Source of the DNA: Chamaesiphon sp. | GTDB taxonomy: Bacteria > Cyanobacteriota > Cyanobacteriia > Cyanobacteriales > Chamaesiphonaceae | DNA: 64,000 nucleotides | Direction of reading: 5' to 3' | NCBI GenBank assembly: GCA_965246715.1 | Contig: CBDFFH010000009.1 | Coordinates: 32,001-96,000, forward strand | Shown: positions 6,647-43,665 of the stretch, one piece after another | Numbering within the stretch: the first letter of the stretch is position 1 | Layout: every line of letters begins with the position of its first letter | Program-made: the position numbers and the translations under genes | Notes under the pieces: generated by a model | Databases searched by the model: none | The model's input: only the letters and a program-made list of their open reading frames with translations | What the model was told of the DNA's origin: nothing

Positions 6647-6835
6647 GATGGCGTGAAGTTGGAGCCGATTCGGTTGTGTGGGGATTGCTATGGGGATTGT
6701 TATGGGGAGTCGTCTTATCATCGGATTGAGTGGCAATTGAAAAGTGTCGATCGGTGTCAACGACATCAGTTGCGGTTATTGCCAAAATGTCGTAATTGTC
6801 AGGCTAAGTTTCCGATGCCAGCATGTCAATTTTAA
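6647..6835 (+). pseudogene. tniQ: TniQ fragment (Zn-binding C-terminal part), similar to type V-K CAST TniQ
   Basis: EPIRLCGDCY..HRIEWQLKSVDRCQRHQLRLLPKCRNCQAKFPMPA matches the cyanobacterial CAST TniQ pattern as recalled; has a 12-bp tandem duplication; N- and C-termini missing. Confidence 0.8.
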
Positions 6836-7567
6836 TACAGCATGTTTGAAACTAACCATCATGGCATTGAGGGAAAATAGCTAATGGAGGCTTTTGCTGG
6901 GCTGGGATTTTAAAGACAGCATCGATCTCTCTAACTTGGCAGAGATTAGGATTAGCTGAAGAGATCGCATGTCACAAGCAAGTCGCTGTATAGATCGCGT
7001 GGCGATAGGTGTTCACGATTGTGACACTCAAAGCATTGGAAGACACTTGTAGCCATATTTTATCTGGAATCTGACGAAGCTCAATAATCGAGAGTTTCTA
7101 ATGCAGCAACAAACCTCGCTCTGAATAAGTAGAACGAGGTGGATAAATTTGCTATTTGGGTCGATTACCTATGGCAAGCGAACAGACCAAACAGTCCCTA
7201 CTTATGTGAGTCGATCCGGTTAAAGTATCAATCTCTCAGTAGGAACCAAGTTCAAATTTATGCACTGATTTTACTAAAATAGTTTTATTTTAAAATATTT
7301 TTATTGGCAATAATGGTATTGCGATGACTGTCGTTACAAGACTTGTTTCATTTTGTCTTGTTGCAACATATTAATCGATCTTATGAGCAATAATTTACTA
7401 GCTATTAGTGGCTATTGTGATACAATATGGATGAAATTAAAATGCACCTTTGTCTCTAAACGCCAATTAAGAGATAAGGTGCAATCATTCATTAGTTTTA
7501 TTTTACTAGTAGTGCTTGGGATTCTAGCCCTTGCACTGCTCCATAGCAATTAGGAGAAGCTGTATCT

Positions 7568-8113
7568 ATGCCTATAGTACCAGATTCAAATCGATGTGAA
7601 GGGGTGCAACCTCTCCCATTTCATTCGTATTCTTACGACAGTATCATAAAGTTACAGAACCTCATCCTACCACAGGAACCGCTCCTATTGTGGTTTGCCA
7701 AGCGAGCTGCTGAGTACAAAGATGTGCAGGAGTTCTGGCAAGAGCATAAATATTTGTTGCCAGGGACAATCGAAAGCAATTGGCGAGGGTACGAATACGT
7801 TCGGATTTTTTGCCATGCAATCAATGTCGAAATCACCGCCTGCTTCTTTCCTTCTGGTTCTTACACAGATGTCCACGATCACGATGGTTGGAATTGGAAC
7901 TTCTCAATCGTTGGAGAACTACTGCTAGACATAAAATATAAGGTCAGCAACAACAAATTTAAAGAAGTTGAGTGCATAAAAATGACCGCATCGCAGCCGC
8001 AAGGCTGCATTCTCAAACCACACCAAAGTCATGAAATGTTTGTTCCGCACTGGGCACAACCCAGTATCTCCTTTAACTTCCATTACCCCGCCAGACCGCT
8101 AGATTTAAGTTAA
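7568..8113 (+). CDS. cupin protein, cysteine-dioxygenase-like
   Basis: FFPSGSYTDVHDHDG...ILKPHQSHEM..SISFNFH (HxH...H cupin metal motif); RBS aggag upstream. Confidence 0.65.
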   Translation: MPIVPDSNRCEGVQPLPFHSYSYDSIIKLQNLILPQEPLLLWFAKRAAEYKDVQEFWQEHKYLLPGTIESNWRGYEYVRIFCHAINVEITACFFPSGSYTDVHDHDGWNWNFSIVGELLLDIKYKVSNNKFKEVECIKMTASQPQGCILKPHQSHEMFVPHWAQPSISFNFHYPARPLDLS

Positions 8114-8300
8114 AGCGGTGGACTATTGCTTTACAACAAAAATTTTAGAAGCTTACGTAGTCCAACTAAGCTTTGTCTTTTAAAAGCTGGATGAAACCTG
8201 TCATTCAGCTTTTATTTTGGTGAGAGCATTGGGTTCGCCCTTGATTATATTTCCTGCTGAAATGCAGGGAACGCCGTAGGGCTAAATATTGTGATATTAG

Positions 8301-8615
8301 TTACGATCGAGCGGTAGTTGGCAAACTGATACGATCTATATTGTTGTGAAACTTCCACTTATTTGCCTTTTCCCAAGCTTCCTCAAACTCGTGGCGGTCG
8401 ATCTTATGCTCCTCTTTTATTTTGAGCCGAGACAGAGACTGATCGCACATCCGCAACTTGTCTTTCATGCTACTTTCGGCTCCACAAGAAAACCATTCTT
8501 GCTTATCTGGGTATTGTTCGACCTGTCGATTAGCCCAGTCATCAATGAACTCAATATACTGAACGATCCTTTTCCCTGGTTGCTCTACCGTGAATTTATA
8601 ATACTGAGTAGTCAT
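8301..8615 (-). CDS. small hypothetical protein, putative immunity/antitoxin of the upstream ART
   Basis: 104 aa, 33 bp downstream of the ART gene; C-terminal IDRHEFEEAW. Confidence 0.55.
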   Translation of the reverse strand: MTTQYYKFTVEQPGKRIVQYIEFIDDWANRQVEQYPDKQEWFSCGAESSMKDKLRMCDQSLSRLKIKEEHKIDRHEFEEAWEKANKWKFHNNIDRISLPTTARS

Positions 8616-8648
8616 AAAATTATTGTGTTTATATTTTTTATGTATAGA

Positions 8649-9056
8649 TCACAAAAGTGTATCTTCAGTTTTTCCATGTATTGAATCTCCAATTTTCAGA
8701 CCTACATTAGTCTTGAAAAGACTAATTCTCCTAATGTCTTCTGGATCTGGATCTTCTCCTATTATTTCTAAATATAGCTGTCTAAAATCGGAAACTTCAT
8801 TTTCTGGTAAAATCAACTGAAAATAATAATCGAGCGTATCTATGTCTACGGCTGTCCCAAACAATTCAATTGGGACATCCATGTTGCCTACTTGAATTGC
8901 TCTAGCAACTTCTATTGGTTCAATCGTTGTTAAGTAGACACCATCACCAAAGGTTGCATCCTTCCTTCCGCTGCTTTTGAGTGATGGCTTAATGATACCC
9001 GTTTCGAGAATACCTTCATATCCCTCTTTAGAGGTATAGTGACGATAGGAGCGCAA
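8649..9056 (-). CDS. HYD1-signature ADP-ribosyltransferase (Tox-ART-HYD1-like)
   Basis: YRHYTSKEGYEGILETGIIKPS....DATFGDGVYLT; TTG start. Confidence 0.75.
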   Translation of the reverse strand: MRSYRHYTSKEGYEGILETGIIKPSLKSSGRKDATFGDGVYLTTIEPIEVARAIQVGNMDVPIELFGTAVDIDTLDYYFQLILPENEVSDFRQLYLEIIGEDPDPEDIRRISLFKTNVGLKIGDSIHGKTEDTLL

Positions 9057-9221
9057 AATAAACTTAATTTACATCACATAATTTAGTTGCTCAAGTTTAA
9101 CACTCTATTTTTTATCTTAACGAATCATTATTTGATTTTCTATAAATTACTATTGAAATAATTTGTTTGATAAATTATCACAACCTAGCTAAAACAAATT
9201 ATTTTATCAAATGAAACGAAA

Positions 9222-9244
9222 ATATTTTTGCTTTAAAAGACATT
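9222..9244. promoter_or_regulatory. putative operator, copy 1 (ATATTTTWGCTTTAAAAGACATT)
   Basis: 22/23 identical to 9892-9914. Confidence 0.5.
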
Positions 9245-9517
9245 CAAGGCAAATTGTATGTGGTAAAAAGATTGTAATCTACAGTCAAGGTTCGATCTCG
9301 TAAGCGCGAACGGATGAGGATTGGTGCGCTGCTAGAAGAACGACAATACACCCTAACGCTTAGATCTCGTCAGGATCGATGTCTAGCGATCGAAACCTAG
9401 CGCGTAATCGCTCGTTTCTCAATTGGCAAAGCCAGTAATCTCGATATCTCGATCGACATTCCGATCGTGGTGCTGGCTTTGATCATAGCAAGATTTAGCT
9501 CGACCGAGGATTGATCG

Positions 9518-9754
9518 ATGGTATATCTAATTCCCGAAGTAGCCAAGCTAACCAACGATTTAATCGATCGAGGTGAAGACATCATCATGGAATCAGATCC
9601 CAGCACCAAAGATATTTCATACTGGCATTACGGCAACATCATTATGCCCTGCGGCGGTACTCATGTCCGCAGTGCCAAAGATATTGGCGTAGTAAACATT
9701 CGGCGGAAGAGTCATGGCAAGTCGCTCGATCGAATTTATCTCACCATTGAGTAA
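9518..9754 (+). pseudogene. C-terminal tRNA_SAD domain of an AlaX-type tRNA editing protein (N-terminus missing)
   Basis: IMPCGGTHVRSAKDIGVVNIRRKSHGKSLDRIYLTI; no upstream HxxxH found in frame. Confidence 0.7.
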
Positions 9755-9891
9755 ATGAACTAATTTCTTTGGTATGGCCGCTTGCGGTCGATCTCATGCC
9801 AGATCGCTGAGGGCGGAACTTGCTAGCCAATTTCACGTCAAATGCGAACATATGAGCTAATGACAGACTTTAACTTTACTTTGTGGTTAAT

Positions 9892-9914
9892 ATATTTTAG
9901 CTTTAAAAGACATT
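9892..9914. promoter_or_regulatory. putative operator, copy 2, just upstream of a TATGAT -10-like box of the regulator gene
   Basis: atattttagctttaaaagacatt followed by tatgctatgat. Confidence 0.5.
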
Positions 9915-9969
9915 TATGCTATGATGTTATTGTAAAATATTTTAGTGCTATAGTTTATAGCCCAAAATT

Positions 9970-11073
9970 ATGAATGAGCCAAAAAAGCGGGGACGACCGC
10001 GAAAGGATGGTGAATCAGAACAGCCGGAATTGGCAATTTCAAACGGTTATCCAGATTTCCTTGACGTTATCGAGAAGTATCTGGCTGAAGCCAAGTGGAC
10101 TAAACGAGAGTTGATGACAGCGATCGGTTTTGGCGAGACACAACTATATCGTTGGAGTCGTGGCGAGAGCGTCCCACGCAAAGCAACGGTTAATCGAATC
10201 GCCATTCAACTGGCAAATAGGCTAGATGCGATTTATGGCAATCGTCTGAACGATCCCTCTCCAGCAACAGATGCGATCGATAGCTTGCTCAACGAGTTAC
10301 TGGGAGCCGCCGGATTTGCTGCTTCGGTTAGAGGTATCACTGGTGATGATTGCTGGAACAAAATCGCTCAGAATCAATGCTGGACACTGGGCTATACAAT
10401 GGTTTCAGAGTTGGCTATCCCACCAGAACGACGTGGTGGTAAGCCCACAGGAAAAGCTATAGAGTACGCCGAAACGATCGGACGATTACTAGGAATAGAA
10501 ACTCTCTGGGAATATCTTGACTTCAACGTCATGCCAGGTGCGATCAGGCAAAGACAAGTCGATGGCATTGCTCCAATTATGTTGGTGCTGCCAGGAAGAT
10601 TATTCGACTACAGTTTTTCAAATCGATGTAGTGAGACACCCTTCACTTTGACAGCGATCTCCGATCGTCAGCTTATTGATGGTGCCGATTGTTTGGAAGC
10701 CCTGCCAGCAAATAAAGTCGAGCTACTTTTTGTAAAGGGTGAGTTGGGTGATTGGGGTGCAAGTGTCTTATCTAACAAGTATCTTCTCAGACAGAGTTTT
10801 GCTAATGCTGACGAGGCGATTAGTTATATGCAGGGGTTAATCGAGCGGCAGGAGTTAGACAAAATACCCGTATTACTCATTGACAATAGCACTGGCGGAT
10901 ATCTAGTCGATCGAGAAAATGATAGAGGTCAACCTAAGCTATTGCAGATTGAAATCAAAAGCGTCAACCTAACAACGTTTAATTCTTTTGCATTTCATCC
11001 AGATGAGAAAATGCTGGTTAATGCAGTCAACCAGTCCATTCCACTTACTCCATATATTCAAATCAAAAACTAG
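9970..11073 (+). CDS. XRE-type HTH regulator fused to a family-3 substrate-binding domain
   Basis: KKRGRPRK AT-hook-like; WTKRELMTAIGFGETQLYRWSRGESVP HTH; PTGKAIEYAETIGRLLG...AIRQRQVDGI..YSFS SBP-like; no signal peptide. Confidence 0.75.
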   Translation: MNEPKKRGRPRKDGESEQPELAISNGYPDFLDVIEKYLAEAKWTKRELMTAIGFGETQLYRWSRGESVPRKATVNRIAIQLANRLDAIYGNRLNDPSPATDAIDSLLNELLGAAGFAASVRGITGDDCWNKIAQNQCWTLGYTMVSELAIPPERRGGKPTGKAIEYAETIGRLLGIETLWEYLDFNVMPGAIRQRQVDGIAPIMLVLPGRLFDYSFSNRCSETPFTLTAISDRQLIDGADCLEALPANKVELLFVKGELGDWGASVLSNKYLLRQSFANADEAISYMQGLIERQELDKIPVLLIDNSTGGYLVDRENDRGQPKLLQIEIKSVNLTTFNSFAFHPDEKMLVNAVNQSIPLTPYIQIKN

Positions 11074-11084
11074 AGGGTAACAAA

Positions 11085-11777
11085 ATGAGCCAGCAGATCG
11101 ACATTCAAGAGCTAATTTCACTGATCCTAAATTCCGAGAAGCTATTTATAAACACCAAGATTCGTGAAGAATTGATTGCATGTATCTTGAATTCAAGTAA
11201 ATTGGTTGAATTTGGTGAAGGCTTTTACTTCATTAGACATGATTTTTGCAAGCTAAATTTCATAGTTGGTGCAAGATGTTCTAATGATGAAATGCTCTGG
11301 TCTGGCTTGGCTAAGAATTTAGTGGAAGAGCTAGGCGGCAAGAGCGGTATCAGTCACAACAAACTCTATTGTGACTTTCTAAAGTCTATTGGAGCCAAAA
11401 CGGAAAATGAATTAGACTGCCCTACCTTCGCTCAAGAATTTAATGATCGCTGGGAAGAATTTGCTAGAACCGCCCCTCTAATGGAGGCTTTATCGGCAAT
11501 AGCTATCTACGAAATTTTTGACGTTCCAGATTACCAGATGTTTTTAGAAATACTAGAACGAGCGAAAGTACCAAAAGAAGGACTAATATTCTTCAGGGTT
11601 CATGCAAATGCTCACCACTTTGAAATGTTTGAAGATACGGTAGCTTGGATACTCACTCAAGAAAGTGGTCAAGAAGCATTCGATCGAGCCAAAGATTTTG
11701 TATTTGATACTCAAAGAAAAATGTGGATTGGCCTAACAGAATTCCTCCAGTCAAAACAATTAGTAGCCGCAAATTAA
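11085..11777 (+). CDS. heme-oxygenase-like diiron redox enzyme (TenA/PqqC/CADD/BesC superfamily)
   Basis: NLVEELGG..SHNKLYCDFL...AIYEIFD...FFRVHANAHH: E/H/E/H/H ligand pattern. Confidence 0.75.
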   Translation: MSQQIDIQELISLILNSEKLFINTKIREELIACILNSSKLVEFGEGFYFIRHDFCKLNFIVGARCSNDEMLWSGLAKNLVEELGGKSGISHNKLYCDFLKSIGAKTENELDCPTFAQEFNDRWEEFARTAPLMEALSAIAIYEIFDVPDYQMFLEILERAKVPKEGLIFFRVHANAHHFEMFEDTVAWILTQESGQEAFDRAKDFVFDTQRKMWIGLTEFLQSKQLVAAN

Positions 11778-11799
11778 AATCTAAAACGGGAGAGATAGA

Positions 11800-12672
11800 A
11801 TGTTAAAAAAATCACTGCTCAGGTATGTATTGCTAGGGTTGTCCCTATTTAGCGTACTCATCTTTAATTTAGCTGGATGCACCAATAGTAATGTGGCACC
11901 TCCCACAGCTACTGCTAGTGCCTCCGTCATGGATCGGGTAGCAACCGATAGCAAAGTCAAAATCGGCTACTTAGTCTTCCCGCCAGCGATTACCAAAAAT
12001 CAAACTAGTGGCGAAATTGGCGGACATCTAATCGATACCATCAAAGAGATTGCCCGACTCAGTAAATGGACACCTGAGTTTGTCGAAACAGATTGGGCGG
12101 GATTTACAACGGGATTAGATTCTGGTCGGTTTGATATTTCCGTCGTGCCAACCTTTGTGACAGTCCCTAGAGCATTATCCATCTACTTTACCAAACCACT
12201 ATTCTTCGCTGGTAACAGTGCGATCGTCCGTGCTGGTGAAACTAAAATTACCACCCTTGCCAGCATCGACAAACCCGAAATTAGAGTCGCCGTCACCCAA
12301 GGTGAAGCGGGGGATGAATACGCTAAGGCAAACTTTAAAAAAGCGAAGATTACCAGCTTTCCAGGTAGCGATCAATCCGCCGCATTCCAAGCTGTAGTCG
12401 CTGGACGCGCCGATATTGCCTTGGGGGATGCTTATGCTACCGCTCAGTTCGCCAAAGCCAATGCAGCCAAGGTCAAAGACCTATTTGCCGCTAATCCCTA
12501 TAACCTCACCCCCGTATCCTGGGCAGTGAGAAAGGGCGACGACAAATTACTCAACTTCCTCAATAGCAGCATTGAAGCCCTCGATTATCAGGGACGCTTA
12601 CGCGAGTTCGAGCAAAAAGCAGGTGCTAACTGGTTGCACCCTAAAAAAGTCTTGGAATTCACTAAAGGCTAA
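11800..12672 (+). CDS. polar amino-acid ABC transporter substrate-binding lipoprotein
   Basis: Lipobox LAGC; GLDSGRFDI, FTKP, AVVAGRADIAL, AVRKGD. Confidence 0.9.
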   Translation: MLKKSLLRYVLLGLSLFSVLIFNLAGCTNSNVAPPTATASASVMDRVATDSKVKIGYLVFPPAITKNQTSGEIGGHLIDTIKEIARLSKWTPEFVETDWAGFTTGLDSGRFDISVVPTFVTVPRALSIYFTKPLFFAGNSAIVRAGETKITTLASIDKPEIRVAVTQGEAGDEYAKANFKKAKITSFPGSDQSAAFQAVVAGRADIALGDAYATAQFAKANAAKVKDLFAANPYNLTPVSWAVRKGDDKLLNFLNSSIEALDYQGRLREFEQKAGANWLHPKKVLEFTKG

Positions 12673-12678
12673 AACCTC

Positions 12679-13353
12679 ATGGGCTGGAACTTTGCGGTCA
12701 TGTGGAATAGTTTTCTACCCCTGTGCCTTGCCATGCTCACCACCATTTGGATTAGCATTGGCACGATTGCCATCGGCACGACTTTAGGGGTGCTGCTGGG
12801 GATTCTATCCCTCACCTCAAATCAATTTGCCTCCAGACTCGCACAGGCATTTATCGAACTATTCCTCGCCCTCCCAGCCCTAGTGATTCTCGTCTGGCTC
12901 TACTATAGTTTGCCGCTGATTTTCCCTGGCTTCATCTTGAGTGGCGATGCCTGTGCTGTGCTGGGGTTAGGATTGAGTTTATCCGCCTTCGTTGCCGACA
13001 TTATCCGAGGTGGCATCAACGCCATCCCCCCAGGGGAACTGGAAGTTGCCTACTGTACGGGAATGACTCGGCTCCAAGCAATTCGCTACATCCTCATCCC
13101 CCAAGTCCTCCAGCGATCTTGGCTGCCGCTGATGGGGCAATATATCACCACCTACAAATTTTCGACCCTAGCATCAGTCATCGCCGTTCCCGAAATCCTG
13201 CATACAGCTAATGCAATCATCGCTCAAACCTATCGCCCATTAGAGATTTACTCGATCGTCGCCTTCATGTTCGTCATCACAATTATGCCGCTCAACCTGC
13301 TCCTCCGCAGACTTCAGCGAGTGAGCAACCTTGGTGGCATGGAGAAAATATAG
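12679..13353 (+). CDS. polar amino-acid ABC permease (HisM/GlnP-like)
   Basis: ADIIRGGINAIPPGELEVAYCTGMT..IRYILIPQ EAA-like loop. Confidence 0.9.
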   Translation: MGWNFAVMWNSFLPLCLAMLTTIWISIGTIAIGTTLGVLLGILSLTSNQFASRLAQAFIELFLALPALVILVWLYYSLPLIFPGFILSGDACAVLGLGLSLSAFVADIIRGGINAIPPGELEVAYCTGMTRLQAIRYILIPQVLQRSWLPLMGQYITTYKFSTLASVIAVPEILHTANAIIAQTYRPLEIYSIVAFMFVITIMPLNLLLRRLQRVSNLGGMEKI

Positions 13354-13358
13354 TCCCT

Positions 13359-14039
13359 ATGGCAGAAGTACTCCTCCGACTCGAAAACATCCAAAAAAAA
13401 ATCGCTGGCAATACGATCCTCGATAACGTTAGCTTGACACTCGATCGCGGTGAAAGTCTGCTAATTCGCGGTAAGAGCGGCTGCGGCAAAACCACACTGC
13501 TCAGATGTATCGCCCTGCTAGAACAGATCGATCGAGGACAAATCCTGTTCGATGGCAAGGTAGTATCTGAGAAGGGTGTACTCGATCGCACCAAGTACAA
13601 GCCCGAAATCGGGATGGTATTCCAGCAACTCTACCTCTGGCCGCATCTAACCGTCTTAGATAATGTCTCCCTCCCCCTCCATTTGCGCCAAGGCGGACAC
13701 AAAAAACTAGCTGACGGGCTGGCGATCGAAAAACTATTCCAACTCGGCGTAATCGGCAAAGAAACCGCCTATCCCCATCAACTCTCCGGCGGACAAAGAC
13801 AACGAGTTGCCCTCGCCAGAGCCTTAGTCCATTCCCCCAGCCTCCTCCTCCTCGATGAAATCACCGCCAACCTCGATCCCGAAACCGCCAGCGTCGTCCT
13901 CGAACTCGTCGAAAAAATTATCCTCTCCGGTACCACCGTCATCATGATTTCCCACCTACCCGTCACCTCTTCCGTCTGGATGTACGAACTAAACGCCAGC
14001 AACTGGGAGTTGGAAAAAAGACAACAGCGCAATAGCTGA
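13359..14039 (+). CDS. polar amino-acid ABC ATPase (GlnQ-like)
   Basis: GKSGCGKTT, LSGGQRQR, LLLDEIT. Confidence 0.92.
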   Translation: MAEVLLRLENIQKKIAGNTILDNVSLTLDRGESLLIRGKSGCGKTTLLRCIALLEQIDRGQILFDGKVVSEKGVLDRTKYKPEIGMVFQQLYLWPHLTVLDNVSLPLHLRQGGHKKLADGLAIEKLFQLGVIGKETAYPHQLSGGQRQRVALARALVHSPSLLLLDEITANLDPETASVVLELVEKIILSGTTVIMISHLPVTSSVWMYELNASNWELEKRQQRNS

Positions 14040-14476
14040 AATTAATGAGTCCGCGCAATACTAATTTACAAAGGTATTTAACGGCGATCTTCCTGTTATT
14101 CCAAGATATATTCGACTGCTATTGGGCGGTTGAGGTAGTAATTTACCGATATCTCAGCTTCGTAACATGATACTTCTAGAAGCTAGAATGGGTATACTTG
14201 CTAGAGGAACCGCTTAAATTGCTTAGTTAAGTACACATTACTTCTCAATTCCCCAGGCTATGTGTAAAATTGAGGTAAGTTAATAATCTGTCAAAAAATA
14301 TATTTCATAAATATACATAAAAGATATACATTCTCAGTGACACATCCAAAACCTTGTGTACCTTTCGGGCAGAAGTTTTTAGTCATTGTATATATCTAAG
14401 CCACAGACCTAGTTATTATTTAATTAGTAAACATGTTCTTACATATTAAGCTTGAACGGTTTCCCATAGATGAACA

Positions 14477-15238
14477 ATGACATTCTCTAATCCACCGATT
14501 GTTGAAGCCATATTCCATGTAGTAGTAGAGCGTGACAGTGAATTTAATAATGAAACATTAAATGATTATGCTAAGTACATCACAGAAAAATTTCCTGCTT
14601 TCGATCGACAAGAACAAAGATTTCTAAAAAATGACATATCATTTCATTCTGACAATCCACACAACATAACTTCTTCTATTAGCAATATTTTACAAGGATA
14701 TCTTTTAGCATCCAATGATAACCCCAGAGTTATTCAAGCTAATATAGACAACTTCTCCTTTAGTAAATTGCCTCCTTATGGAACATGGGAATCATTCTAC
14801 AAAGAAGCAAATGAATTCTGGGAGAAATACGCTGAGATAACTTCAGTCGATCGAGTCAAACGCCTTGGATTACGCTATCTAAATCGGATTGAAATTCCTT
14901 TTGATAATAGATCTTTTAAGTTACGAGAATACATCAAGATATTCCCTGAAGTCACTGATGATTTATCAGTAACAATTTCTGGACACTTTATGCAAATGTC
15001 TCTTGACTCTGAGCTTTATAAACCGTCCAGAGCAATTGTAAATCAAGCAGTTGGCAATGTAGGCGATATGAAGTCCACTCCTTTAATATTTGATGTTGAA
15101 GTTTTTCAAGATGTAGACCTTACGCATCAAAACAATTCCAAAGAAATAGAATCAATTTTTATTAATAACTTACGAATATTCAAGAATAGTATATTCTTGA
15201 ATAGTATCACTGAAAAATCACAGGAGCTTTTCAAATGA
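14477..15238 (+). CDS. TIGR04255-family protein
   Basis: FSNPPIVEAIF..., PYGTWESF, VKRLGLRYLNRI, LIFDVEV, FLNSITE. Confidence 0.85.
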   Translation: MTFSNPPIVEAIFHVVVERDSEFNNETLNDYAKYITEKFPAFDRQEQRFLKNDISFHSDNPHNITSSISNILQGYLLASNDNPRVIQANIDNFSFSKLPPYGTWESFYKEANEFWEKYAEITSVDRVKRLGLRYLNRIEIPFDNRSFKLREYIKIFPEVTDDLSVTISGHFMQMSLDSELYKPSRAIVNQAVGNVGDMKSTPLIFDVEVFQDVDLTHQNNSKEIESIFINNLRIFKNSIFLNSITEKSQELFK

Positions 15239-15810
15239 TAGTTTCAGAACGTCAAACCATCGCAAAAAGTCCTATTCAAACAGTAACAAAATCAGGTAGT
15301 TACAATGTTATTGCAAGCTCTAGCAAAGGTGAAAGCTGCGAATACAAGCGAGTTGAAGCACAGATAAAGTGTCAAGATCGTACTGAGGTTGCTCACGTAC
15401 TTGAAAGTCCTGATGTTGCTGAATTAGAAAAAAGAGCAGAGGATTTAAGAGACTTATTACTTGAAAATCGTACTGCTTTGTCAGAGCAGGAAATGCGTCT
15501 ACTCAAAGGACTTTTTAATAGTAACAAGCAACTCATTGCTCTGAACAAAAAAACATCTCCATTAATTTTAGTAGCATTAGCAAGTCTTTTAGAGCCACTA
15601 ATTGAAAATCCTGCCTATGCTCAAGACATAGAGTCTATCGTCAAGAGCTTACTAAAATCACCATCAACAAGTTTAAGATATGCTGCTCTAGACATTATCA
15701 CTGCTGGATTAGGAATAGTTCCTGTTGCAGATTCATTACTAAAAGAAGCGAAAATATTGCTAAAAAATGAAGAGCCTGGGTATGTTCTCGAATACTTGGA
15801 GTCTCTTTAA
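15235..15810 (+). CDS. hypothetical protein, coupled to TIGR04255 (ATGA overlap); helical/HEAT-like C-terminus; candidate antitoxin
   Basis: ORF 191 aa, 4-nt overlap. Confidence 0.7.
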   Translation: MIVSERQTIAKSPIQTVTKSGSYNVIASSSKGESCEYKRVEAQIKCQDRTEVAHVLESPDVAELEKRAEDLRDLLLENRTALSEQEMRLLKGLFNSNKQLIALNKKTSPLILVALASLLEPLIENPAYAQDIESIVKSLLKSPSTSLRYAALDIITAGLGIVPVADSLLKEAKILLKNEEPGYVLEYLESL

Positions 15811-15813
15811 TTT

Positions 15814-17788
15814 GTGGAGCAATTTCTTTATTATCGAAGTTTGAGTAAAAGTGCAGATATCTGGAGAAAGGGGAAAAAAATCAGGTTCTACCGAACTTAC
15901 TATGCTAAATCAAGGATTGAAATGCCATGCTAGCAAACTTCTGATCTGAAAATTCTCAAAATTTCTAAACCCATATCCCATTCTTTTTATTAGCTTGAGT
16001 TTATTGTTAATTCCTTCGACGACTCCTTGAGTTGTTCTATTATCAAAATAGGCAATTATTTCACCAATCCATCTTTTAATAGTTCCACAACTCTTGGGGA
16101 ATTTCCCACAAGCATTCTTGAGCCAGTCACACAAGCTTATTAGCCCATTTCCCCAATCTGTTTTTGATTCAAATATATCTCTAAATAACTCTTTTGTTTT
16201 GTGCATTGCTGCTAATTCTGGAAAAACGTCTCCAATCTCTTTCAACTTCTCTTTTTGCAATTCATTCAAATCCGCTTCGTTTTTGAGTATTGCATATTTA
16301 CTGTGAGTTAATGCTGCTAATTTCTTGTTCTTTTCATCTTTGTTCTTCACCCTCTCAGCCTCTCTTTTGATTTTAATTCTCTCTCGATCTAACTCTTCAT
16401 TTATCTGTTTCATTACATGAAATCTGTCTCCAACCACTTCAGCATTTGGTATCAATTCATTTACCAGACTTTTGTATGATGAAAATAGATCGATACTTAC
16501 TTCTGTAATTTGGTTCAAAACCTCCGAACCCCAAGACTTCAAGCACTCACCAATACATTCTTGAGTCCTTTTTGGTAAGATGGCTATTAACTCTCTTTTT
16601 TCTAGATCTACTAACACCGCACAATAGTTTTTTTGCCCTTTAACAAAGGCAATTTCATCAATTCCTAGTCTGGTTAAATTCTCTGGCTTTTTTTGCACTA
16701 GATTTACCCCAGCTTTTTTGATTATTGTCTCCACTTCTTGCTCACTTAATCCATTTCTTTTGGCAACACTTTTAATATCACTAGCTAGACTCTCTTCGAC
16801 AATCTTCTGCTTCATTCGCTCGGTGAAATGACTTCTCTTTTTGATGAAATTTAATTCCTCACTGAATTTTCGACCACAACTCATACACTTGAATTGACGA
16901 CGATTAATTTTAAGGTAAACATCATGTTCACCGAATGGTAGATCTCTCACTGTTAATTGGTGATTCTCATGAAGTTTATTACTTTCAGTTCCACAATGAG
17001 GACACACTGCTTTTAATTGCTGATTTTCTAGATAAATAAAATAACCGATTTCATCTAAGATCTTATAAGCAGTGACGGTCATTCCGTCGATATTAAGAAT
17101 TTCATTAATGGTTTTTAGTTGCGATTTGGATGACATAATGCAATTCAAGCTTATTTGTTGCCAGAAATCAAGATCTTACTATTCTATAATAAAATCTGTC
17201 ATTTATGCTGCACCAAGCTTCCATAACTCAAAATTATCAATTTTGTCAATTAAACTTGATTCTTATCCACTACTTAGCATAGCAAGTTCGGTAGAGCCAA
17301 AAATCAAAGCTTTTCCCCCTGATGTTGAAAAAGAGACATACTTGAGCCACATGACAATGGGAAAAGGATTTCCTTCGATATGGATGTCATCAAACAATGA
17401 AGATCTAGAAAGAATTGCTCTTGGGCTTATGCTATGCAAAGGAAGTCTTGACAGGATAGAATTTGTCGGATTAAATCTATGCTGTTTTGAAAAAACACAA
17501 GTCAAAATTATCCAATCTTCTAATCCTCAATTTCCATTACCTTCGGTTGGCAATCTTCATCATGAATTACACAGCTATAATGACGACAATATTACCGAAT
17601 CAATTGAAATATTCCTATATTGCAATGGAAAGATCGAGAAATTTCCAAAAGTCTCGAATTCAGACACAGAGACAAGTATGCTAAACATAGCAAAGAAGTA
17701 TATCGATGAAATAAGTGGTGAAGTTTATATAAAGAAAGCTAGGGACTGGATTGAAAAATACGGAAAATCTCAAGTAACTGGGAATTAA
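15814..17788 (+). pseudogene. 183-aa putative ART/RES-fold toxin interrupted by ISL3
   Basis: Removing 15884-17306 rejoins MEQFLYYRSLSK...KKI/KAFPPD...PSIW..LERIALGL..LDRIEFV..NLHHEL in frame. Confidence 0.7.
15884..17298 (-). mobile_element. ISL3-family IS; transposase 15910-17148
   Basis: IRs ggttctaccgaacttactatgctaa / ggctctaccgaacttgctatgctaa; 8-bp TSD aaaaatca; GIDEIAF, DRFHV, EGINNKLKLIKR. Confidence 0.95.
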
Positions 17789-17847
17789 AAAAGACAGTTG
17801 AATTAAATGGAGTTATTTCTCGATCTACTATAGACGTTAGTAGATCT

Positions 17848-18364
17848 AGGACAAATCCTCTTCGATGGCAAAGTAGTATCAGAAAAAGGTGGACTCGATC
17901 GCGCCAAGCACAAACCAGAAATTGGCATGGTATTCCAGCAACTCTATCTATGGCCGCATCTAACCGTCTTAGATAATGTCTCCCTCCCCCTCCATCTACG
18001 CCAAGGCGGACACAAAAAAATAGCTGATGGACTCGCGATCGAAAAACTATCCCAACTCGGCGTAATCGGCAAAGAAACCGCCTATCTCCATCAACTCTCA
18101 TGCGGACAAAGACAGCGAGTCGCCCTAGCCAGAGCCTTAGTCCATTCCCCAAGTCTTCTCCTCCTCGATGAAATCACCGCCAACCTAGATCCCGAAACCA
18201 CCAGCGTCGTCCTCGAACTCGTCGAGAAAATTATCCTTTCCGGTACCACTTTCATCATGATTTCCCACCTGCCCGTCACATCTCCAGTCTGGATGTACGA
18301 ACTAAACGCCACCAACTGGACATTGGAAACAAGGCAACAGCATCAAGAATTTGAGAATCGATGA
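17848..18364 (+). pseudogene. diverged duplicate of the 3' two-thirds of the ABC ATPase gene (13535-14028)
   Basis: Near-identical protein without Walker A; signature changed to LSCGQ. Confidence 0.9.
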
Positions 18365-18697
18365 ATTAGCCTATCCAGGCATGGCAATTATCCCTGAAGG
18401 AGGGCGGATATTGAAATTCGTCGAAATCACCCAACAAGGCATCAGCATCGTGTTAGTAGAACAAAAGATTCATCCGAGTTTTATTAAGTGACAGCGACAT
18501 TGGCAATCGCCTCCCCTGTCACCGATCCGGAGAAATGAGAGTACGATATCGCGCTTTTTCGCTTTATAGTTATTTTAATTAAGAATGATACAACTACCGT
18601 TCAATCGAACCGCTGTTGACAATGGATTGAGCGAATCAGGCTGTCTCAAACTTATTTGGAATGACTATACCAAGGCAAAATAGCGATGCTGACAGCA

Positions 18698-19231
18698 TCA
18701 ACCCATCATCAATCTGATATCTTTGAGCAACTTATACATAGTCAGTGGCGATGCTGGAAATGGCTCGAACCCAAAATGACCATAAAACTTGCCCGCACTC
18801 TCATCTTTAGCATGAACGAGAATCGCCCTAATTCCAGCAATGTCAGCGGCATTTACGGTTCGACGCAAAGCGTCCAACAATAAACCTTGTCCGAGCTTTT
18901 GCCCTTGAAAACGATTATCTACAGCCAACCGCGCCAAAACCATCACGGGGATCGGGTAACGTGCCAACCCTTTACTCAACCCTTCAGGTGACTCAGAATG
19001 CGTGACTTCTCCCACCGTGAGGGTGTAATAACCAACCACCCGTTCGCCAATTAACGCCAGCCAAGTTTGGGCACTGTCTTTCTTCTGATTTTGGGATGCG
19101 TATCGGTGTAAAAACTGATTTAGTGCCTCTACCCCACAATCGAATTCGGCGATCGGTTGCCCAGATGTAAGTTTTTCGATCCGTGGCTGAGAATCGTCTG
19201 TGGCTATGGACATCGTTCGCGTAGCGTTCAC
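18698..19231 (-). CDS. GNAT acetyltransferase toxin (AtaT/TacT type)
   Basis: FDCGVEALNQFL, LARLAVD..FQGQKLG, FYGHFGF. Confidence 0.9.
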   Translation of the reverse strand: MNATRTMSIATDDSQPRIEKLTSGQPIAEFDCGVEALNQFLHRYASQNQKKDSAQTWLALIGERVVGYYTLTVGEVTHSESPEGLSKGLARYPIPVMVLARLAVDNRFQGQKLGQGLLLDALRRTVNAADIAGIRAILVHAKDESAGKFYGHFGFEPFPASPLTMYKLLKDIRLMMG

Positions 19232-19509
19232 TTTGTGAAATCGAACACACTGGGTGTATTTAGCAGTTGTTGCAGACGGGGATGAGTGCGAGGCGGAGCA
19301 TCAAGAGCTGCCTGGAAAGCATCCCATTGTTCATCGTTGAGACTAAATTGCCGCCGTTCGGCTAGGGTACTTTCTGCTTCTGTCAGAGCGGTATCCAGTA
19401 CGAATTCACTGAGGGTTTTATGACGAGATTGTGCCGCAGCCTGCAACAACCTCTTCGCAGTTGGGGAAAGGCGAATATCTAGCCTTTCTGCCCGTAAATT
19501 AGAAGACAT
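19228..19509 (-). CDS. DUF1778 RHH antitoxin
   Basis: ERLDIRLS..K.LLQAAA....TLSEFVL..; overlaps the toxin start. Confidence 0.9.
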   Translation of the reverse strand: MSSNLRAERLDIRLSPTAKRLLQAAAQSRHKTLSEFVLDTALTEAESTLAERRQFSLNDEQWDAFQAALDAPPRTHPRLQQLLNTPSVFDFTK

Positions 19510-43261: not shown

Positions 43262-43271
43262 GATTTGGTAG

Positions 43272-43665
43272 TGGAGCTGGGCAGAGTCGAACTGCCGTCC
43301 GCCCTGGGTATTAACTTTCCGCTCATTCACAGGTATAGTCTATCTAATCCTCAAGACGGGAGTGACCAATTATCCCAGGTCGCAGGATGCTCTGATGAAT
43401 CTTAGCTAAATAATCTACCAGAGACGATTATTTAGAGCATCCGTTGAGGGTTATCTATAGTACTTAACGGAGTCGTACTATAAATGCTCGGACTTAGAAA
43501 TTAATCTTAAGTGTTTTTAGGCAGCTACAGGAGCGGCTTTACGAGCGAAAGGTACAATGTTGTTTGCATCTATATTTAGTTGAGCCGATATTAACGAGAG
43601 TGGACTCCCTCTCGACCTGTATCACAGTGCAGCGTTCGCCAACACGTCGAAACCTTTACAGCCCC
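43272..43665 (-). ncRNA. ssrA: tmRNA
   Basis: 5' GGGGCTGTAAAGGTTTCGAC; 3' GGACGGCAGTTCGACTCTGCCCAGCTCCA; tag ANNIVPFARKAAPVAA*. Confidence 0.97.

Follow-up and report, generated by a model that had tools for sequence, protein, structure and literature searches.

A conserved cyanobacterial operon links a likely ligand-responsive regulator, an ABC importer and a heme-oxygenase-like enzyme with a variant predicted metal site

Heme-oxygenase-like diiron oxidases (HDOs) are a family of which about 12 members have been characterised, and nearly every new one has brought new chemistry (PMC13108848). Characterised dimetal HDOs are described as sharing the ligand motif E-H-E-H-(D/E)-H (PMC11363339, PMC13108848), and FlcD is described as a mononuclear HDO with the motif E-H-E-H-V-R (PMC11363339). 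In a survey of ~5,000 HDOs reported in the latter source, ~9% of groups are without a motif call. Here, we have analysed a 64,000-nucleotide stretch of Chamaesiphon sp. DNA (contig CBDFFH010000009.1, positions 32,001 to 96,000; hereafter the window) and describe an operon in which the gene of an HDO-fold enzyme lies between that of a helix-turn-helix (HTH) regulator with a solute-binding sensor domain and those of an ATP-binding cassette (ABC) importer. The operon is real and conserved, and acts like a one-component-regulated importer and enzyme module. We propose, with about an even chance of being right, that it is a sense-import-oxidise system that, on induction, takes up and oxidises an unusual nitrogen-rich solute akin to an amino acid. 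No description of the operon, the metal-site motif or the regulator architecture was found in the literature searched, a search whose coverage mostly excludes subscription papers. The five genes are as follows.

9970-11073, + strand: HTH-sensor regulator gene, 367 aa; residues ~30-90 XRE/Cro-type HTH, ~125-360 cytoplasmic family-3 solute-binding domain.
11085-11777, + strand: heme-oxygenase-like (PF14518) enzyme gene, 230 aa; predicted metal ligands E82, H91, E143, D146, H173 and H178.
11800-12672, + strand: family-3 solute-binding lipoprotein gene, 290 aa; lipobox LAGC; pocket F60, W99, P117-T118-F119, R124, G168-E169 and D210.
12679-13353, + strand: polar-amino-acid-type ABC permease gene, 224 aa; HEQRo three-transmembrane domain above cut-off.
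13359-14039, + strand: ABC ATPase gene, 226 aa; Walker A, LSGGQ, Walker B and H-loop; short C-terminus common to homologues.

The genes are co-oriented with intergenic gaps of 11, 22, 6 and 5 bp, agree in length with their homologues and carry no lesions. Pfam matches above cut-off were obtained for the enzyme (PF14518) and the importer (PF00497, PF00528, PF00005), and the nearest named relatives of the operon proteins are from Chamaesiphon. Compared with the related locus L019, the ratios of nonsynonymous to synonymous substitution (dN/dS) of genes 1 to 5 are 0.09, 0.12, 0.017, 0.068 and 0.106; judged by these ratios, all five are maintained under purifying selection. An earlier interpretation of this DNA (the sequence-only reading) had described five intact co-oriented genes, and the confirmed reading frames, the short gaps and dN/dS values of 0.017-0.12 bear it out. 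Each gene is single-copy in the genome, except that a second copy of the 3′ 500 bp of the ATPase gene, 91% identical, lies at 17843-18341. Since L019 has this fragment too, the duplication is, by sequence comparison, an old one.

Gene order was counted in 13 other genomes that have a close enzyme homologue (at least 43%) with flanking DNA; the five metagenome loci L010-L014, each only 1.6-2.6 kb long, are outside the count. The full five-gene order is found in 11 of the 13 (L001-L006, L009, L019, L033-L035), so that the conservation whose absence had been set beforehand as a possible refutation is in fact present. At L007 genes 2-5 are present and the contig begins just upstream of them, while the Acidobacteriaceae locus L008 reads binding protein, permease, ATPase, membrane protein and enzyme, and has no such regulator within 8 kb. 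The enzyme and importer genes are thus adjacent even where the order differs. L008 and L012 each have a membrane protein beside the enzyme, and these are unrelated. Among the short loci, L012 has an ATPase fragment, L014 is a weak match, and L011 has a coupling-protein gene and no transporter within 2.6 kb. By indirect matching of records, 29 of 53 enzyme homologues were paired with a binding-protein or regulator homologue, which gives indirect support to a wider linkage.

The AlphaFold2 model of the enzyme (47 sequences, pLDDT 92) has the seven-helix heme-oxygenase fold, and by this modelled fold the enzyme belongs to the HDO superfamily. Its best fold matches are BesC (Z 21.9), HrmI (21.2), Npun_F6505 (20.7), CADD (20.5) and FlcD (20.1), at 10-16% identity; PqqC (16.1) and TenA (14.3) rank below these five HDOs, and Foldseek gave a similar top set. 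The PF14518 score is 48.4 bits against a cut-off of 28.9. A plain TenA or PqqC orthologue, which the sequence-only reading had named as a refuting outcome, is rejected by the lower Z scores and by the lack of a match to either family at E <=0.1. A BesC orthologue is likewise rejected (NF042919, 20.6 bits against a cut-off of 500), and the reading frames scanned at close loci include no halogenase. GntA, from the guanitoxin pathway, was also considered, and the NCBIfam scan gave no such match. A CADD-like para-aminobenzoate (pABA) synthase is rejected by its model (TIGR04305, 20.5 bits against a cut-off of 200) and by phenylalanine at two CADD tyrosine positions: invariant Phe43 and Phe169 replace Y43 and Y170 (numbered from the alignment; the position of CADD Tyr27 falls outside it). 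We take Y43 and Y170 to act in a radical relay in CADD.

These comparisons also bear on the view that the protein is a housekeeping or non-diiron member of the fold, be it metal-free and TenA/PqqC-like, a self-sacrificing CADD-like pABA synthase, or mononuclear like FlcD. Many database copies are auto-named PqqC, and helix alpha3 lacks the canonical fifth ligand, as in mononuclear FlcD (PMC11363339). However, besides the family scores and the substituted tyrosines, no folate, thiamine or PQQ genes were observed near the loci, and the six invariant potential ligands include a third His that FlcD does not have. We therefore regard this view as very improbable.

The assignment to a heme-oxygenase-like diiron enzyme in the sequence-only reading holds for the fold and for PF14518, but the canonical diiron motif is absent and a variant stands in its place. 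E82, H91, E143 and H173 correspond to the first four canonical ligands, E-H-E-H. Helix alpha3 then reads H173-x4-H178 in place of the canonical H-x3-D/E-x2-H; in the alignment, BesC and CADD have a two-residue insertion relative to the enzyme family profile, which bears the D/E ligand, and positions 177 (H/N/E/Q) and 180 of the enzyme are variable. D146 lies one turn (three residues) past E143, and E82, H91, E143, D146, H173 and H178 are invariant in 33 sequences, down to 21% identity. Our motif survey covered 175 sequences of at least 190 aa (the window and 174 of 203 matches). H-x4-H is found in 122 of them, every one with D146 (122/122), and canonical spacing in 49, none with an acid at the D146 position (0/49); four fit neither pattern, and P0121 and P0090, which fit both by chance, were assigned by eye. 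Since D146 accompanies the alpha3 deletion in this way, the third carboxylate would have moved from alpha3 to alpha2, keeping a predicted dimetal site of three His and three carboxylates with D146 as a putative ligand.

In a quick IQ-TREE run on 140 rows, from which 35 close homologues were omitted, the variant group forms one side of a branch with SH-aLRT 99, and FastTree without the motif columns gave the same change counts, with long-branch warnings. The trees suggest that the H-x4-H/D146 change probably arose in one event, and the co-occurrence of its two parts is therefore not 122 independent tests. BesC, a 4-chloro-allylglycine synthase, and CADD, both HDOs with three His and three carboxylates, are like the enzyme in fold, in the ligands E-H-E-H and in the pocket motifs F-R-x-x-F and N-x-x-x-E. 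They differ from it in overall sequence (14-19% identity), in the alpha3 deletion that costs the enzyme the D/E ligand, in position E+3 (Asp in the enzyme, Ser in BesC, Ile in CADD), and in the importer-linked context of the enzyme. FlcD (Z 20.1) and the enzyme both depart from the canonical last two ligands, but FlcD has lost two, whereas the enzyme retains the third His and gains Asp, which makes six potential ligands. The predicted arrangement is absent from all solved HDOs aligned here, and the H-x4-H/D146 clade may be among the groups without a motif call in the survey as reported (PMC11363339).

The E-x2-D/H-x4-H motif is wider than the operon, since it is also found at L037 (5683-8626), where a distant cyanobacterial enzyme (29%) lies in a cluster of PhyH-family dioxygenase, SET-domain and HDO genes with no importer. 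The PhyH/SET-linked sister clade has ~57 representatives, one of which, P0133, is fused to an NAD-binding reductase domain.

The first gene likely encodes a ligand-responsive regulator. Its product has the make-up of an XRE one-component regulator, with a soluble sensor domain, no transmembrane-like segment, and an HTH whose recognition residues Q58, Y60 and R61 are invariant (39 sequences); the HTH and SBP_bac_3 Pfam matches are below cut-off in the window, and HTH_3 is above cut-off in L001. The matches below cut-off gain support from 41 homologues, of which every one with a taxon name is from a cyanobacterium. The sensor aligns with the binding protein of the operon (hhalign 84%, E 7e-6) and keeps P202, R210, E258 and D305 in 38-39 of 39 sequences, matching the Pro, Arg, Gly-Glu and Asp of the binding protein. 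These common binding-site residues support the earlier suggestion that one ligand is both sensed and imported. The sensor profile gives 10-25 bits to all four operon-type binding proteins, and none of 12 further family-3 matches in the five genomes concerned exceeds 9.4 bits. The best operon-type proteins reach 37 and 33 bits against the sensor profile, which is comparable to the 32 bits of reconstructed ancestral binding proteins in the PDB against the regulator profile, and for this reason we consider it no more than likely that the sensor descends from the operon's own binding-protein gene.

Regulator and enzyme form one in-frame open reading frame (ORF) in L001, P0322 and P0324, and the sensor diverges jointly with the N-terminal surface helices of the enzyme. 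Both observations would suit a regulatory partnership, in which the enzyme-fold protein would mainly bind the sensor domain, as a co-sensor of ligand, O2 or metal, and not be a bulk catabolic enzyme. Yet adjacent co-transcribed genes fuse easily, 200-500 bp separate the regulator and enzyme genes in L005, L006, L009, L034 and L035, and L008 keeps enzyme and importer without such a regulator. We consider such a partnership decidedly unlikely. A single-sequence fold of a natural regulator-enzyme fusion (pLDDT 38) was uninformative.

No operator motif is common to the 11 upstream regions, and a box GCTT(T/A)(A/T)AAAGACAT lies upstream of the regulator in the window, L001 and L019 only. The genome has only two copies of a 15-base box, GCTTTAAAAGACATT, at 9230-9244 and, 670 bp further on, at 9900-9914, and L001 and L019 have a similar box ahead of the regulator. 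It is possible that this box is a promoter or operator that was duplicated at a rearrangement.

With a lipoprotein of the SBP_bac_3 family, an HEQRo permease and an ATPase with intact motifs, the importer is of the polar-amino-acid-type (PAAT) class, as the sequence-only reading had proposed. The named PAAT importers GlnH, HisJ, ArgT, ArtJ, FliY and EhuB were all rejected, the best scoring 72.8 bits against an equivalog cut-off of 256. The closest PDB sequences to the binding protein are of the AncCDT/Ws0279/Pu1068 lineage, described as binders of cationic amino acids and carboxylates (bioRxiv 10.1101/157495). Among the binding-protein homologues R124 and F119 are kept in 81 of 81 and D210 in 80 of 81. 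The positions of R124 and D210 presumably bind the alpha-carboxylate and alpha-amino groups, as in other family-3 proteins. P117-T118-F119 stands where aligned family-3 controls have motifs of the S-I-T or G-M-T type, and the alpha-amino site is thereby altered from Thr to Phe and from Gly to Pro, which makes a standard polar amino acid an improbable ligand.

The binding protein shares the carboxylate Arg and an aromatic pair with AncCDT, Ws0279, Pu1068 and EhuB. Its aromatic residue at position 119 is as in EhuB, whose annotated sequence has Tyr there, which we take to have a cation-pi role. It differs in that the residue aligned with AncCDT-1 Asp19 or with the EhuB Glu is not acidic, that Ala stands at the CDT catalytic Glu173 position, and that it keeps D210, which is absent in EhuB. 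The nearest annotated relatives, from Azospirillum and Sodalis, are 34-36% identical and share T-F, and adjoin genes for an arginase-family hydrolase, an N-carbamoyl amidohydrolase and an XRE regulator. Their operons, with a related binding protein and permease, follow the same importer-enzyme-XRE logic, but have hydrolases in place of the oxidase and an XRE-cupin in place of the XRE-SBP regulator. By analogy, this context weakly suggests that the ligand is a guanidino, amidino or N-alkyl acid imported for its nitrogen. ABC operons with divergent arginase-family and carbamoylase genes lie on Azospirillum and Sodalis plasmids (L057, 4520-10012; L058, 3885-9283) and may inform the present system.

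To explain these features, we propose that the ABC system would import an unusual nitrogen-rich amino-acid-like solute, most likely a carboxylate whose cationic nitrogen is delocalised or alkylated (guanidino, amidino or cyclic imino acid). The HTH regulator would sense the imported solute in the cytoplasm through a binding domain of importer type, and would autoregulate the operon. The enzyme would oxidise or cleave the solute at the predicted dimetal centre with its rearranged ligands, and this oxidative breakdown would serve nitrogen scavenging or detoxification. We infer from sequence, model and genomic context the shared ligand, the autoregulation, the role of D146, the oxidation of the imported solute and its breakdown, and the catabolic direction, the substrate and the metal content are predictions of the same kind. 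The sense-import-oxidise idea of the sequence-only reading thus gains from the conserved order, the non-TenA/PqqC enzyme and the shared pocket residues, and is qualified in its diiron centre, its ligand and its cupin. If it is right, the importer-tied HDO may be a catabolic representative of a family otherwise known from biosynthesis. As the two soluble binding domains share a pocket signature, the substrate can be sought directly by ligand screening, and the HTH-SBP fusion offers a ready-made scaffold for a biosensor.

Several points weigh against this proposal. No downstream catabolic enzyme is conserved and the fate of the product is unexplained; the characterised HDOs are framed as biosynthetic in the account cited (PMC13108848). 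D146 is a putative metal ligand by sequence and not by geometry, the arginase-linked relatives are only ~35% identical, and the ancestral PDB proteins score 32 bits against the regulator profile. Moreover, several pairs show co-divergence of the sensor and the N-terminal two-thirds of the enzyme alongside an unchanged importer, a pattern not expected from a simple shared-substrate model.

That framing leads to a biosynthetic or signalling circuit, in which the enzyme makes or edits a small noncanonical amino acid, the importer re-imports it and the HTH-sensor reads it, in the manner of import-dependent quorum sensing, with swappable sensor-enzyme alleles. We think such a circuit unlikely, though it deserves serious weight. 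BesC belongs to the bes cluster. That cluster has the AlaX deacylase BesG, and AlaX can mark noncanonical amino acid pathways (PMC13149037). In our system, a divergent CysE-JAB-CysK-AlaX cassette adjoins the regulator in L001, L003 and L019, and L004 has DUF2000 and a broken GntB-like desaturase upstream instead; the window has the following remnant.

9518-9754, + strand: AlaX tRNA deacylase remnant, the inverted C-terminal part (residues 171-244), without the HxxxH half of the editing site.

By sequence, this remnant is a relic of the optional cassette, the rest of which has been lost. Within the family of the window, cassette AlaX was found in no genome other than the three that have a close enzyme (3/39). 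However, the cassette is missing at 8 of the 11 full loci, seven of these eight having neither it nor the DUF2000/desaturase pair, and the surroundings of the five genes show no conserved biosynthetic partner or exporter at the loci compared. The cassette leaves the choice between catabolism and biosynthesis undecided, since AlaX with cysteine biosynthesis is a common primary-metabolism pattern, seen in 11% of a large AlaX cluster (PMC13149037).

The signalling form of this circuit draws on the joint divergence of sensor and enzyme. Between the congeneric loci L003 and L004, DNA identity is 86-100% in the promoter, the HTH, the enzyme 3′ end and the importer, but 53-82% over 1.2 kb spanning the sensor and most of the enzyme. 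Protein identities for HTH, sensor, enzyme N-terminal part, enzyme C-terminal part and binding protein are 95, 64, 64, 85 and 100%, and a second, indirectly matched pair is alike (89, 62, 61, 87 and 88%). Of the 62-77 enzyme changes, only 2-8 affect columns with at least 80% conservation. The sensor P/R/E and the invariant residues of metal site and pocket are the same in the alleles, so that no ligand change is indicated. The profile was not found in the pairs L005/L034 and L006/L009. Between the window and L019 the sensor-enzyme block is near the genome background of 73-83%; hypervariability of regulator and enzyme in the genus of the window was for this reason dropped, and it is the importer, not the block, that was recently exchanged there. 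The co-divergence could reflect co-evolving surfaces or old alleles held as a block; both are possible.

The operon is rare and mobile, its carriers scattered among cyanobacteria. A close enzyme is found in 3 of 39 genomes of the window's family, an enzyme at E <=1e-20 in 6 of 401 genomes of its order (one of the six distant) and an enzyme in 2 of 144 genomes of another family; the binding protein was found in 7 of 351 and 2 of 401 genomes in two surveys, and no enzyme homologue was found in the plasmid collection. In L001 the operon sits between TnsB/TnsC/TniQ and MerR/Cas12k, and these flanking genes mark it as cargo of a type V-K CRISPR-associated transposon. The window, in contrast, has only a fragment.

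6653-6835, + strand: TniQ remnant, a TniQ fragment kept in the window and L019.

This remnant is likely a relic of the transposon that is intact around the L001 operon; Cas12k and TnsB were not found in the window's genome with the queries used. DNA identity between the window and L019 is 84-98% in the importer against 73-83% in unlinked genes, which shows a recent exchange between species. A more speculative extension, which we hold to be a long shot, is that such transposons have spread a small-molecule circuit for signalling or scavenging among mat-forming cyanobacteria, with the new-geometry diiron oxidase and importer-derived receptor as a swapped, pherotype-like allelic pair over a constant importer. 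In L034 an inserted SLATT-domain gene (9029-9454) separates the enzyme gene from that of the binding protein.

A public contig is identical to the window, letter for letter, over 7000-13667 and is possibly the source sample itself. Among other public runs, one has the importer side only and one is without the 5′ part of the enzyme gene, the uncovered parts being uninformative; none of the runs listed is an RNA dataset with the region. An Rfam scan of 6800-19000 gave no match, and promoter and terminator scans gave signals no better than chance.

The sequence-only reading had also placed the operon in a decayed region, below a cysteine-dioxygenase (CDO)-like cupin and an AlaX remnant. Both upstream features are present, and the cupin is as follows.

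7568-8113, + strand: CDO-like cupin ORF, CDO-like by language-model features only (0.92).

The cupin has no Pfam or NCBIfam match, and tblastn found no homologue at the relative loci compared, save one match at E=0.39; it is local to the window's lineage and outside the conserved operon. The flanks are indeed rich in insertion sequences (IS) and hold the TniQ, AlaX and ATPase fragments, but the gene pair directly downstream, a TIGR04255 gene and a 191-aa ORF (14477-15810), is intact and 98-100% identical in L019. The pair accompanies the operon in the window, L001 and L019, and the 191-aa ORF has zero amino-acid or synonymous differences from L019, in genomes 73-83% alike elsewhere. An ISL3 element, of which the genome has ~20 nearly identical copies, lies at 15885-17300 and interrupts an ORF that is unbroken in L001 and L019. 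On the minus strand, a 135-aa ORF with a Tox-ART-HYD1 match (8649-9056) adjoins a 104-aa ORF with a weak DUF6881 match, and the two are possibly a toxin-immunity pair. A GNAT acetyltransferase gene with a small upstream ORF (18698-19509, minus strand) is toxin-antitoxin-like and is interrupted by an IS in L019. A tmRNA gene lies at 43271-43665 (minus strand), ~7 kb past the right end of the IS-rich stretch.

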